A stretch of 64,000 bases of DNA from Octopus vulgaris (Eukaryota). Below are positions 6,416-14,814 of the stretch, in pieces. A program made the position numbers and the translations under genes. The stretch lies in assembly GCA_951406725.2 (NCBI GenBank), contig OX597841.1:10726001-10790000 (forward strand), read 5' to 3'. Below the pieces are notes generated by a model, which worked only from the letters and a program-made list of their open reading frames with translations, was not told the origin of the DNA and ran no database searches. How positions within the stretch are numbered: position 1 is the stretch's first letter; every line of letters begins with the position of its first letter.

Positions 6416-6702
6416 ACATATATATATATATATATATATATATATATATATATATATATATATATTTATATATATATATATATATATATATATATATATA
6501 TATATATATATATATATATATATATATATATATATATATATATATATATATATATATATATATATATATATATATATATATATATATATATATATATATA
6601 TATATATATATATATATATATATATATATATATATATATATATATATATATATATATATATATATATATATATATATTTTTATATATATATATATATTTA
6701 TA
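6416..6702. repeat. (TA)n microsatellite, left flank of the HHR array
   Basis: Direct reading of the sequence. Confidence 0.98.
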
Positions 6703-9700
6703 TAAAATAAATATAAGAGAGTGGTCACTATATGGCTCACTCTAGCACCAGTTAATCCAAAAGGTTTCAACCACAAAAATACATGTTTCCCATGAAAGTC
6801 AGTACGATTGTTAGCTCACACGGACAGGGCAAATAAAAAATAACAAAAATACAGATTATTTTGGGACAATTGTTTCGCTATTAATGAATTAAATGTAATA
6901 TTACTTACAAAAAAATCCACTTGTAGCTCCTCAGCCAAAACTATCTGGATGAAATCCACTCAATCACACGCCAGACTTTACCATAACGATAAATACACGT
7001 GTGGTTCAATTGATTACATCCGACGTTATAATTCAAATGCCCCAACTAACAGCGCGCCAAACTTTCACGGAAAACAAAGACTGCATTTAGAAATAAATGT
7101 AGCATAATTATAATTAATTAATAAGGGTGAGAGAATTAGATACTAATTTAATAGTATATCTATTCAACACCAAGTGGCCTAGTGCTCCGAGAAACCTGGA
7201 TTATTATAATATTTTATAATATATTATAATATTTTTACAAAATAAATATAAGAGAGTGGTCACTATATGGCTCACTCTAGCACCAGTTAATCCAAAAGGT
7301 TTCAACCACAAAAATACATGTTTCCCATGAAAGTCAGTACGATTGTTAGCTCAAACGGACAGGGCAAATAAAAAATAACAAAAATACAGATTATTTTGGG
7401 ACAATTGTTTCGCTATTAATGAATTAAATGTAATTTTACTTACAAAAAAATCCACTTGTAGCTCGTCAGCCAAAACTATCTGGATGAAATCCACTCAATC
7501 ACACGCCAGATTTTACCATAACGATAAATACGCGTGTGGTTCAATTGATTACATCCGACGTTATAATTCAAATGCCCCAACTAACAGCGCGCCAAACTTA
7601 CACGGAAAACAAAGACTGCATTTAGAAATAAATGTAGCATAATTATAATTAATTAATAAGGGTGAGAGAATTAGATACTAATTTAATAGTATATCTATTC
7701 AACACCAAGTGGCCTAGTGCTCCGAGAAACCTGGATTATTATAATATTTTATAATATATTATAATATTTTTACAAAATAAATATAAGAGAGTGGTCACTA
7801 TATGGCTCACTCTAGCACCAGTTAATCCAAAAGGTTTCAACCACAAAAATACATGTTTCCCATGAAAGTCAGTACGATTGTTAGCTCACACGGACAGGGC
7901 AAATAAAAAATAACAAAAATACAGATTATTTTGGGACAATTGTTTCGCTATTAATGAATTAAATGTAATTTTACTTACAAAAAGATCCACTTGTAGCTCG
8001 TCAGCCAAAACTATCTGGATGAAATCCACTCAATCACACGCCAGATTTTACCATAACGATAAATACGCGTGTGGTTCAATTGATTACATCCGACGTTATA
8101 ATTCAAATGCCCCAACTAACAGCGCGCCAAACTTTCACGGAAAACAAAGACTGCATTTAGAAATAAATGTAGCATAATTATAATTAATTAATAAGGGTGA
8201 GAGAATTAGATACTAATTTAATAGTATATCTATTCAACACCAAGTGGCCTAGTGCTCCGAGAAACCTGGATTATTATAATATTTTATAATATATTATAAT
8301 ATTTTTACAAAATAAATATAAGAGAGTGGTCACTATATGGCTCACTCTAGCACCAGTTAATCCAAAAGGTTTCAACCACAAAAATACATGTTTCCCATGA
8401 AAGTCAGTACGATTGTTAGCTCACACGGACAGGGCAAATAAAAAATAACAAAAATACAGATTATTTTGGGACAATTGTTTCGCTATTAATGAATTAAATG
8501 TAATATTACTTACAAAAAAATCCACTTGTAGCTCCTCAGCCAAAACTATCTGGATGAAATCCACTCAATCACACGCCAGACTTTACCATAACGATAAATA
8601 CACGTGTGGTTCAATTGATTACATCCGACGTTATAATTCAAATGCCCCAACTAACAGCGCGCTAAACTTACACGGAAAACAAAGACTGCATTTAGAAATA
8701 AATGTAGCATAATTATAATTAATTAATAAGGGTGAGAGAATTAGATACTAATTTAATAGTATATCTATTCAACACCAAGTGGCCTAGTGCTCCGAGAAAC
8801 CTGGATTATTATAATATTTTATAATATATTATAATATTTTTACAAAATAAATATAAGAGAGTGGTCACTATATGGCTCACTCTAGCACCAGTTAATCCAA
8901 AAGGTTTCAACCACAAAAATACATGTTTCCCATGAAAGTCAGTACGATTGTTAGCTCACACGGACAGGGCAAATAAAAAATAACAAAAATACAGATTATT
9001 TTGGGACAATTGTTTCGCTATTAATGAATTAAATGTAATATTACTTACAAAAAAATCCACTTGTAGCTCCTCAGCCAAAACTATCTGGATGAAATCCACT
9101 CAATCACACGCCAGACTTTACCATAACGATAAATACACGTGTGGTTCAATTGATTACATCCGACGTTATAATTCAAATGCCCCAACTAACAGCGCGCCAA
9201 ACTTTCACGGAAAACAAAGACTGCATTTAGAAATAAATGTAGCATAATTATAATTAATTAATAAGGGTGAGAGAATTAGATACTAATTTAATAGTATATC
9301 TATTCAACACCAAGTGGCCTAGTGCTCCGAGAAACCTGGATTATTATAATATTTTATAATATATTATAATATTTTTACAAAATAAATATAAGAGAGTGGT
9401 CACTATATGGCTCACTCTAGCACCAGTTAATCCAAAAGGTTTCAACCACAAAAATACATGTTTCCCATGAAAGTCAGTACGATTGTTAGCTCAAACGGAC
9501 AGGGCAAATAAAAAATAACAAAAATACAGATTATTTTGGGACAATTGTTTCGCTATTAATGAATTAAATGTAATTTTACTTACAAAAAAATCCACTTGTA
9601 GCTCGTCAGCCAAAACTATCTGGATGAAATCCACTCAATCACACGCCAGATTTTACCATAACGATAAATACGCGTGTGGTTCAATTGATTACATCCGACG

Positions 9701-12700
9701 TTATAATTCAAATGCCCCAACTAACAGCGCGCCAAACTTACACGGAAAACAAAGACTGCATTTAGAAATAAATGTAGCATAATTATAATTAATTAATAAG
9801 GGTGAGAGAATTAGATACTAATTTAATAGTATATCTATTCAACACCAAGTGGCCTAGTGCTCCGAGAAACCTGGATTATTATAATATTTTATAATATATT
9901 ATAATATTTTTACAAAATAAATATAAGAGAGTGGTCACTATATGGCTCACTCTAGCACCAGTTAATCCAAAAGGTTTCAACCACAAAAATACATGTTTCC
10001 CATGAAAGTCAGTACGATTGTTAGCTCACACGGACAGGGCAAATAAAAAATAACAAAAATACAGATTATTTTGGGACAATTGTTTCGCTATTAATGAATT
10101 AAATGTAATTTTACTTACAAAAAGATCCACTTGTAGCTCGTCAGCCAAAACTATCTGGATGAAATCCACTCAATCACACGCCAGATTTTACCATAACGAT
10201 AAATACGCGTGTGGTTCAATTGATTACATCCGACGTTATAATTCAAATGCCCCAACTAACAGCGCGCCAAACTTTCACGGAAAACAAAGACTGCATTTAG
10301 AAATAAATGTAGCATAATTATAATTAATTAATAAGGGTGAGAGAATTAGATACTAATTTAATAGTATATCTATTCAACACCAAGTGGCCTAGTGCTCCGA
10401 GAAACCTGGATTATTATAATATTTTATAATATATTATAATATTTTTACAAAATAAATATAAGAGAGTGGTCACTATATGGCTCACTCTAGCACCAGTTAA
10501 TCCAAAAGGTTTCAACCACAAAAATACATGTTTCCCATGAAAGTCAGTACGATTGTTAGCTCACACGGACAGGGCAAATAAAAAATAACAAAAATACAGA
10601 TTATTTTGGGACAATTGTTTCGCTATTAATGAATTAAATGTAATATTACTTACAAAAAAATCCACTTGTAGCTCCTCAGCCAAAACTATCTGGATGAAAT
10701 CCACTCAATCACACGCCAGACTTTACCATAACGATAAATACACGTGTGGTTCAATTGATTACATCCGACGTTATAATTCAAATGCCCCTACTAACAGCGC
10801 GCTAAACTTACACGGAAAACAAAGACTGCATTTAGAAATAAATGTAGCATAATTATAATTAATTAATAAGGGTGAGAGAATTAGATACTAATTTAATAGT
10901 ATATCTATTCAACACCAAGTGGCCTAGTGCTCCGAGAAACCTGGATTATTATAATATTTTATAATATATTATAATATTTTTACAAAATAAATATAAGAGA
11001 GTGGTCACTATATGGCTCACTCTAGCACCAGTTAATCCAAAAGGTTTCAACCACAAAAATACATGTTTCCCATGAAAGTCAGTACGATTGTTAGCTCACA
11101 CGGACAGGGCAAATAAAAAATAACAAAAATACAGATTATTTTGGGACAATTGTTTCGCTATTAATGAATTAAATGTAATATTACTTACAAAAAAATCCAC
11201 TTGTAGCTCCTCAGCCAAAACTATCTGGATGAAATCCACTCAATCACACGCCAGATTTTACCATAACGATAAATACGCGTGTGGTTCAATTGATTACATC
11301 CGACGTTATAATTCAAATGCCCCTACTAACAGCGCGCCAAACTTACACGGAAAACAAAGACTGCATTTAGAAATAAATGTAGCATAATTATAATTAATTA
11401 ATAAGGGTGAGAGAGAATTAGATACTAATTTAATAGTATATCTATTCAACACCAAGTGGCCTAGTGCTCCGAGAAACCTGGATTATTATATTTTATAATA
11501 TATTATAATATTTTTACAAAATAAATATAAGAGAGTGGTCACTATATGGCTCACTCTAGCACCAGTTAATCCAAAAGGTTTCAACCACAAAAATACATGT
11601 TTCCCATGAAAGTCAGTACGATTGTTAGCTCACACGGACAGGGCAAATAAAAAATAACAAAAATACAGATTATTTTGGGACAATTGTTTCGCTATTAATG
11701 AATTAAATGTAATTTTACTTACAAAAAGATCCACTTGTAGCTCGTCAGCCAAAACTATCTGGATGAAATCCACTCAATCACACGCTAGATTTTACCATAA
11801 CGATAAATACGCGTGAGGTTCAATTGATTACATCCGACGTTATAATTCAAATGCCCCAACTAACAGCGCGCCAAACTTTCACGGAAAACAAAGACTGCAT
11901 TTAGAAATAAATGTAGCATAATTATAATTAATTAATAAGGGTGAGAGAATTAGATACTAATTTAATAGTATATCTATTCAACACCAAGTGGCCTAGTGCT
12001 CCGAGAAACCTGGATTATTATAATATTTTATAATATATTATAATATTTTTACAAAATAAATATAAGAGAGTGGTCACTATATGGCTCACTCTAGCACCAG
12101 TTAATCCAAAAGGTTTCAACCACAAAAATACATGTTTCCCATGAAAGTCAGTACGATTGTTAGCTCACACGGACAGGGCAAATAAAAAATAACAAAAATA
12201 CAGATTATTTTGGGACAATTGTTTCGCTATTAATGAATTAAATGTAATATTACTTACAAAAAAATCCACTTGTAGCTCCTCAGCCAAAACTATCTGGATG
12301 AAATCCACTCAATCACACGCCAGACTTTACCATAACGATAAATACACGTGTGGTTCAATTGATTACATCCGACGTTATAATTCAAATGCCCCTACTAACA
12401 GCGCGCCAAACTTACACGGAAAACAAATACTGCATTTAGAAATAAATGTAGCATAATTATAATTAATTAATAAGGGTGAGAGAATTAGATACTAATTTAA
12501 TAGTATATCTATTCAACACCAAGTGGCCTAGTGCTCCGAGAAACCTGGATTATTATAATATTTTATTATATATTATAATATTTTTACAAAATAAATATAA
12601 GAGAGTGGTCACTATATGGCTCACTCTAGCACCAGTTAATCCAAAAGGTTTCAACCAGAAAAATACATGTTTCCCATGAAAGTCAGTACGATTGTTAGCT

Positions 12701-14476: not shown

Positions 14477-14647
14477 TTAAAGTTATCGGTAAACGTTTTT
14501 GATTTTCACTCTCGATAAATTCATCCCCTTTTTGTGTTCCCAGCACTCGGCATCTTAATTTAGGAGCCCTTAATTGTCATGTTGATTCGTTAGCTACTGC
14601 ACGCATTTTTTTCTCTCCTTCTTTCTGTGTTCTTCTCTCTCTGTGTA

Positions 14648-14685
14648 TCTTTCTGTTGAAGAGCGTAGGCTCGAAACGTTAAAGA
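14648..14685 (+). ncRNA. Minimal Penelope-type hammerhead motif with variant core (fourth family)
   Basis: UCUUU-CUGUUGA-A-GAGC-GUAG-GCUC-GAAAC-GUU-AAAGA. Stems I and II are perfect, helix III is reduced to the palindrome AACGUU, and the core has U in place of A6. Confidence 0.6.
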
Positions 14686-14814
14686 CTTGTTTTATTTATA
14701 TTTCCTGAGCGCCATACTAATACAATTGTTCGTTTGTTTTCCACCTGCCTTCGTCTTTTGTTTATTTTCATAAAGCTTCCCGTTATATATATATATATAT
14801 ATATATAGATATAC

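Follow-up and report, generated by a model that had tools for sequence, protein, structure and literature searches.

Hammerhead-bearing elements at (TA)n tracts of the Octopus vulgaris genome and their probable insertion by Neptune-type Penelope-like elements

How animal non-long terminal repeat (non-LTR) retrozymes move, and how their arrays arise, is described as open in the sources closest to this work, which set copying of circular RNA against later satellite growth (PMC7229834; 10.64898/2026.07.22.740005). Circle copying had been proposed earlier (PMC4209133, PMC7229834), and the preprint among these sources links retrozymes to Penelope-like elements (PLEs) by co-occurrence and trees, matches 24 of 57 Xenopus retrozyme families to known elements by homology of the pseudo-LTR (pLTR), and discusses later growth by unequal crossover (10.64898/2026.07.22.740005). 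In the established model of the double hammerhead, helix I and helix III both form between two partners, and palindromes that vary within one genome have already been described (PMC4209133). Among PLEs, a bias towards microsatellites is known for the Neptune and Naiad elements (PMC8557442). Here we analyse a 64-kb stretch of Octopus vulgaris DNA (positions 10726001-10790000 of contig G000:C28, in a genome of ~2.8 Gb; hereafter the window) in which four elements with hammerhead motifs, F1 to F4, stand next to one another.

Copies sampled across the genome indicate that F1 to F3, together with F4, end in (TA)n genome-wide and were likely inserted by the reverse transcriptase (RT) and endonuclease of Neptune-type PLEs, with circular RNA as the likely source of F1 to F3. 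The stack itself is ordinary for this genome, and the weight of the case lies in the family-wide footprint of insertion. If the tentative single-event reading given below is true, these footprints would be direct genomic evidence for an enzyme and a route that have only been proposed in the retrozyme literature. We found no footprint or haplotype evidence for retrozyme insertion in a literature search that was thin on subscription journals and supplements, and ribozymes go unmentioned in the accessible main text of an octopus repeat annotation (PMC13282606).

The stacked elements and their families

A descriptor scan placed 12 type I hammerhead motifs of F1 on the minus strand, one per 535-bp unit (6858-6941 to 12742-12825), with the helix III palindrome ACAAUUGU and the cleavage-site triplet GUC. 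A looser descriptor scan added one hammerhead in the 431-bp unit of F2 (minus strand; palindrome ACCUGCAGGU, site GUC), two in the 454-bp repeat of F3 (plus strand; ACCGCGGU, GUU) and a minimal hammerhead-like motif in F4 (14648-14685, plus strand; ACGU, GUU). The four motifs, which an earlier note on this DNA had read from the letters alone, exceed chance, because the descriptor returns 13 palindromic motifs from 560 kb of arbitrary genome stretches and 0 from the same stretches reversed. That note was also right that the units share no obvious sequence, since their homology is limited to short AT-rich matches (best 31 nt, E 0.001, opposite strand). Other parts of its description stand in part. 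TA separates most of the elements, but F1 and F2 also have about 150 bp of host sequence between them, and F3 joins F4 without TA; the supposed 454-bp dimer has two motifs but only about 1.7 units; and the core of F4 departs from the canonical one, with U at position 6 in nearly all copies. The inverted arm of F1 (12833-13027) had been overlooked. The features run as follows, E1 and E2 being the fixed 3' ends described below.

6401..6715, no strand: (TA)n tract at the fixed 3' end of the F1 array (site E1)
6704..12832, minus: F1 main arm, 11 full units of 534-535 bp plus partial ends, with 12 type I hammerheads
12833..13027, plus: F1 inverted arm, 195 bp, meeting the main arm head to head; it ends at E2, ~116 nt beyond E1
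13024..13149, no strand: TA-rich tract, its right part from ~13105 common with the C31 donor locus
13105..13260, no strand: host spacer of the C30/C31 segmental family, copied with F2 from G000:C31:10139733
13261..13700, minus: F2, a single 431-bp unit and ~10 nt more, with the cut predicted between 13455 and 13454 and the 3' end at E1
13701..13807, no strand: (TA)n tract that also holds additional short copies of the F3 5' junction
13802..14577, plus: F3, about 1.7 of the 454-bp units, with cuts predicted after 14015 and 14469, ending near the family's E2
14578..14785, plus: F4, 208 bp, the 5'-truncated 3' terminus of the coding PLE Nep-C, motif at 14648-14685
14784..14813, no strand: (TA)n tract where F4 has its fixed 3' end

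At 13747-13810 the F3 5' junction recurs in two further short copies that alternate with TA, a pattern that repeated template jumps or slippage would give. A check of the window's open reading frames (ORFs) found no coding ORF in the stacked region. Folded alone, only the F1 motif is better than its shuffles (z -4.2), those of F2 to F4 lying between z +0.3 and -0.5, and the circular monomers of F1, F2 and F3 fold better than shuffles (z -4.9, -3.8 and -2.0).

F1, F2 and F3 are dispersed, with best copies 94-100% identical and spread over many contigs. Exact matches to the ribozyme motifs number 2,083 for F1, 52 for F2 and 73 for F3, and clustering of the first 100 F1 matches leads to an estimate of ~670 F1 insertions. 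The units (535, 431 and 454 bp; GC 0.32, 0.40 and 0.385) have no ORF and no LTR. F1 and F3 are tandem in the window; F2 is solo there, yet its family has motif pairs one unit apart. The base of helix II in F3 carries an extra or mismatched A on each side. At 120 loci the 5' side of F1 to F3 continues into more units or breaks off, and at none does it enter an ORF. Autonomous PLEs are present in the same genome. F1 to F3 fit non-LTR retrozymes and would be three new families of a known kind, with self-cleavage predicted. Another F2 insertion, with motifs on both strands, lies 115 kb from the window (G000:C28:10854781), and random stretches (L211-L250) with their flanks hold at least a dozen further hammerhead families with a palindromic helix III, several as inverted pairs.

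F4 had been counted as a fourth non-coding element. It is instead the 5'-truncated end of a young coding Neptune-type PLE, Nep-C, because longer copies run upstream into an RT, a CX4CxxC linker and, at the C terminus, a GIY-YIG domain, one locus has two head-to-tail units of 4.47 kb, and open frames of up to 1,214 amino acids are nearly identical (99-100% at the protein level in the best 119 of 23,189 candidates). An exact F4 29-mer has 4,668 genome matches; it was used in place of a DNA similarity search, which gave only 34 candidates because common words were skipped. Domain order and motifs place the parent as Neptune-type. Its linker aligns with those of two further Neptune-type families of the genome, Nep-A (a 781-amino-acid ORF in many intact copies) and Nep-B, the GIY-YIG domain of all three is C-terminal and not N-terminal as a Naiad identity would have it, and Pfam scores the Nep-C domain at E 0.003, below cut-off and on a partial frame. 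Copies of Nep-C have variable 5' ends and TA at their 3' flanks; an inverted arm or tail is seen for Nep-A and Nep-B and for no Nep-C copy in the loci examined. The F4 core has U for A at position 6 (A6→U), A being found in only 1 of 55 distinct motif contexts, and the activity of this hammerhead is doubtful because position 6 is U and a natural A6C variant cleaves slowly (PMC3088659). At nine Nep-A loci (L171-L179) the intact 781-amino-acid ORF is preceded by a second frame of 250-480 amino acids. The pLTR at these loci contains repeated boxes that we take to be CCAAT- and CRE-like, and the descriptor found no hammerhead in it.

(TA)n targets, two fixed ends and a candidate enzyme

The enrichment at (TA)n that the earlier note had proposed is clear genome-wide. 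TA lies at 145 of 157 3' ends of F1 to F3 (57/63, 41/43 and 47/51, respectively), scored as (TA)4 within a 40-nt end window, against 7.0% of random 40-nt windows; for F4-type ends, scored within 70 nt, the count is 27/30. Tracts of (TA)10+ occur about 560 times per Mb in 56 arbitrary 10-kb genome stretches. Flanking tracts of at least 40 bp are found at 32-48% of insertions and in 37% of the length-weighted background, and insertion therefore appears to scale with target size.

The 3' ends of each family fall at two fixed places within the unit, which, counted from the cut site, are positions ~175 and 291 in F1, 196 and 260 in F2, and 222-230 and 93-146 in F3. Among 46 two-armed insertions, the arms are divided between E1 and E2 in 43, one end falls in neither class in three, and two like ends occur in none; the 65 one-armed insertions end at E1 in 53 cases, at E2 in 11 and elsewhere in one. 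Where two arms meet head to head, the 5' break points vary. Nep-A and Nep-B show the same pattern: their tails measure about 38 and 32 nt, and in L176, L189 and L184 there is one arm per end. In a purified PLE, reverse transcription begins at two internal sites, which set the tail; both strands are extended, and the enzyme is predicted to be dimeric (PMC11167929). Because the footprint of F1 to F3 matches that of Nep-A and Nep-B and the behaviour of the purified enzyme, a Neptune enzyme is the probable mover of F1 to F3. Mobilisation by PLE machinery, as the earlier note had it, is thus supported by common insertion marks together with the intact TA-targeting Neptunes of this genome.

The proposed route has five steps. 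Tandem units would be transcribed, for which the sole support is editing-like changes in sequencing runs guessed to be RNA. By analogy with published retrozymes, adjacent hammerheads would then pair through helix I and the palindromic helix III and cut, and circularisation of the monomer would follow. A Neptune enzyme would nick both strands of a TA tract and prime at the two fixed internal sites of the RNA, E1 and E2, and rolling round the circle would yield one or two multi-unit arms of one haplotype, head to head. Insertions would keep their TA flanks, and later ones would land beside them at the ordinary per-tract rate, the rates being those of our samples; a four-element chain would then be the tail of this per-tract process. 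We tentatively suggest that a dimeric Neptune enzyme writes arrays in a single event, priming two nicked TA strands at two fixed sites of a circular RNA, and, as part of the same tentative proposal, that the window array records about three laps round a 2,140-nt four-unit circle and that solo retrozymes carry host flanks between TA tracts. Such a route would let several-kb satellite-like arrays and long inverted repeats, which are substrates of RNA editing, arise at once. It is also testable, as young insertions and intact helper candidates provide predicted start sites (E1 and E2), a target and haplotype tags.

Templates, array growth, neighbours and palindromes

Haplotypes bear on how the arrays were written. 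In 39 F1 insertions other than that of the window, the divergence of units is 0.28% inside one arm, 0.40% from arm to arm and 2.7% from one insertion to another, and 14 other multi-unit arrays have 51 singleton and 3 shared variant sites (homopolymer-adjacent sites masked) with no fixed difference specific to an arm. One insertion (L369) holds 10 full units in two arms with zero differences, and 12 variants are private to one insertion, yet present in all of its units. By eye, F3 looks alike in haplotype pattern, in three two-armed arrays and others. One haplotype per insertion with star-like mutations therefore favours one-step rolling-circle copying. T>C accounts for 6 of the 12 variants common to all units of an insertion and for 9 of 75 single-unit variants, although the numbers are small. 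That editing of the RNA template leaves its mark on new arrays as A>G is unsupported, only 1 of the 12 lap-shared variants being A>G.

A second kind of copying is seen at F2. Positions 13105-13807 of the window match a locus on C31 near 10139733, and the outer flanks do not. The spacer belongs to the C30/C31 segmental family, in which 8 of 8 other members examined lack F2 and have the donor's right flank, and two alleles were found in the window F2 and its donor alone among the F2 loci compared. Because the match is confined to spacer and F2 and the two alleles are exclusive, F2 with ~150 bp of 3' host flank is shown, at the level of sequence, to have come from C31 as one module bounded by TA, through either 3' transduction or DNA-level copying. 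That the C31 locus is a paralogue of the window was rejected, only spacer and F2 being common. For this module alone, the chance that it was copied as DNA, by template switching or gene conversion from one TA tract to another while a break was repaired, and not by RNA 3' transduction, falls only a little short of even. The copied piece begins and ends in TA tracts, and its 5' boundary differs from that of the donor by no more than a few bases, an agreement that random 5' truncation would rarely produce. On the other hand, the extra DNA flanks F2 on its 3' side alone, as transduction would leave it; a solo hammerhead has no partner for dimerisation in cis and would allow RNA read-through; and a cDNA entering the upstream TA would likewise join its target by TA pairing.

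The RNA data for F1 are contigs from runs guessed to be RNA, none of which is recorded as RNA, and contigs cannot show ends or circles. They carry clustered A>G and T>C changes absent from the sampled genomic copies in a comparison between different individuals that covered 149 genomic pieces. At ten A>G sites (7151-7194) G occurs in 0-2 of about 82 genomic pieces, and at the T>C sites 6803, 6811, 7266 and 7268 C occurs in none of 91-95; the other listed contig changes are ordinary genomic variants. The pattern fits A-to-I editing of double-stranded F1 RNA derived from both strands, as inverted arms would form. A single junction that skips 621 bases in one contig, at depth 3, was disregarded.

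Several observations weigh against insertion from circular RNA by a Neptune enzyme. No hammerhead family of Rfam matched at the gathering score or at E up to 5; cleavage, circles and strand-specific RNA of F1 to F3 are predictions; and cleavage in vitro was seen for only 1 of 9 retrozyme dimers predicted in Xenopus (10.64898/2026.07.22.740005). The offsets between E1 and E2 (about 116 nt in F1, 64 in F2 and 80-135, reversed, in F3) exceed the 30-40-nt PLE tail. No common end motif ties F1 to F3 to one helper, and the link of each family to an autonomous PLE by a shared pLTR, which the earlier note had envisaged, did not emerge at 79 PLE-bearing loci, a minority of the genome's PLE copies, where a search at word size 7 found only adjacent independent insertions. 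The loci are best-scoring or first-listed copies, and young insertions are therefore over-sampled. Rare families adjoin one another in L324 (F2-F1) and L363 (F3 with an F2 relative) among 109 insertions, and the window's own F1 array is not star-like, with 7 shared and 4 singleton sites. Uncut RNA, moreover, was the main substrate of the purified PLE (PMC11167929), so a circle is not required.

An apparent pLTR link at L181 and L182, where F2 lies beside a Neptune ORF, was rejected, since TA stands between them and the two loci are one 5-kb duplicate. This stretch, with F2, (TA)9 and a truncated Nep-B, occurs on both contig C6 and contig C1, as a duplicate at 99.7%.

The use of uncut RNA as the dominant substrate by the purified enzyme speaks for a template without a circle, in which the same elements and enzyme would have used a long uncut linear transcript of a homogeneous donor array. 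L368 and L369 have a common haplotype, as donor and daughter could, and the F2 copy with its host flank would need linear read-through RNA if it moved by RNA. Against a linear template, the 12 insertion-private variants present in all units would need a single-unit bottleneck just before amplification, and arrays of 12-14 units would need 7-kb transcripts escaping a dozen tandem hammerheads. We consider it unlikely.

Growth in place, in which a PLE enzyme merely seeds a partial tandem that then expands as satellite DNA by unequal crossing-over or slippage, is less likely again, and its best case is the F1 array of the window. Units of this array diverge by 0.97% and form a four-unit (2,140-bp) higher-order mosaic, with lag-4 differences of 1, 0, 0 and 0 in the 3' part; the 5' part resembles the same unit order with one unit lost. 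Units A and B lie 2 substitutions from other insertions, and C and D 6-7 from any sampled insertion. The exact four-unit periodicity, which assembly error could mimic, and the two distant unit types would suit growth in place. A chimera of two sampled lineages agrees only partly with the data, C and D being too distant. Three laps round a four-unit circle, growth in place and assembly error all fit this one array. Across the family, however, growth in place is opposed by the 3 shared against 51 singleton variants of the 14 other arrays and by the same haplotype in both arms, as independent growth of the arms would give shared and arm-specific variants.

The earlier note had seen in the stack an insertion hotspot, and neighbour counts speak against it. 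Another PLE or hammerhead lies within 300 bp of 9/109 F1 to F3 insertions and of 13/154 random (TA)10+ tracts (Fisher p = 1.0), against 3.4% of random points; within 600 bp the counts are 15/108 and 10/116 (p = 0.29). Roughly 50,000-90,000 such insertions, a figure extrapolated from only 560 kb, would give ~3-6 four-element chains per genome. Because insertions have such neighbours as often as random TA tracts do, a stack of this kind is rare but to be expected and marks no special hotspot, while the adjacencies in L324 and L363 leave room for mild clustering of rare families. The C31 donor of F2 has a Nep-C copy in the next TA tract, a second, independent stack.

The palindromes, for their part, had been proposed as family-specific keys. 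The four in the window differ and cross-pair poorly (2-3 bp from the core). Yet the F1 palindrome recurs with different helix I strands in L232 and L239, both without detectable F1 homology; distant F1 relatives retain it but alter helix I; and the F4 palindrome recurs in at least two other families. Between families with a common palindrome, helix I cross-pairing is 0-1 bp in most pairs, the exceptions being the F1 core on L232 RNA (5 bp) and F4 with L222 (3 bp). The helix III palindrome is under selection, because between L232 and L159 the sequence changes as a palindrome. It does not appear to be a family key, because unrelated families reuse it while helix I differs. A special TA hotspot for a non-coding ribozyme guild with palindromes as keys against hybrid ribozymes is therefore very improbable: the poor cross-pairing here, the scarcity of F2 and F3, which makes their meeting rare, and the further rare-family pairs favour it, but the neighbour rate, the expected chains, the coding F4, the reused palindrome, the opposite strands of F1/F2 and F3/F4 and the capacity of tandem units to pair in cis all oppose it.

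Beyond the stack, its right side (14814-15372) consists of abundant repeats resembling short interspersed elements (134 matches in the background set) and its left side (6080-6400) of another interspersed repeat, both bordered by TA. Broken endonuclease and RT frames on either strand at 27552-29925 and 59825-61246 mark a candidate element of the long interspersed type, and short degenerate TTAGGG repeats at 62977-63052 lie close to an N gap.

Comparison with described systems

F1 to F3 resemble animal non-LTR retrozymes (PMC7229834; 10.64898/2026.07.22.740005) in having tandem units that are short, non-coding and of low GC (32-40%) and that each contain one type I hammerhead, in ranging from monomers to multimers and in co-occurring with autonomous PLEs. 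The 535 nt of F1 exceed the 170-400-nt range of PMC7229834 and lie within the 51-972 bp of 10.64898/2026.07.22.740005. Unlike those retrozymes, F1 to F3 have no homology to the sampled pLTRs, and the strictness of (TA)n targeting, the head-to-head arms and the pair of fixed 3' ends seen here were not found described in the accessible parts of either source. With the minimal, dimer-dependent hammerheads of metazoan PLEs (PMC4209133) the hammerheads here share a short palindromic helix III, an extra base before helix II and a helix I of 4-5 bp, the family-wide A6→U of F4 and the extra A before the GAAA box of F3 being the differences.

The Poseidon PLE of the green anole, studied in vitro (PMC11167929), likewise has two internal start sites, cuts and extends both target strands and uses AT-rich targets. 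Its start site is not homologous to the cut DNA, whereas most ends here lie on short TA- or AT-like stretches of the unit, and here each arm of a pair uses a different site. Neptune PLEs (PMC8557442) differ from the F4 parent in that its hammerhead has U at position 6 and no tail or inverted arm was seen in the loci examined, and from F1 to F3 in that these have no ORF and longer end offsets. The F4 parent nevertheless agrees with them in its RT, CX2-5CxxC linker, C-terminal GIY-YIG domain, head-to-tail units, 5' truncation and microsatellite targeting, and F1 to F3 agree with them in their partial tandems, inverted 5' arm and offset ends.

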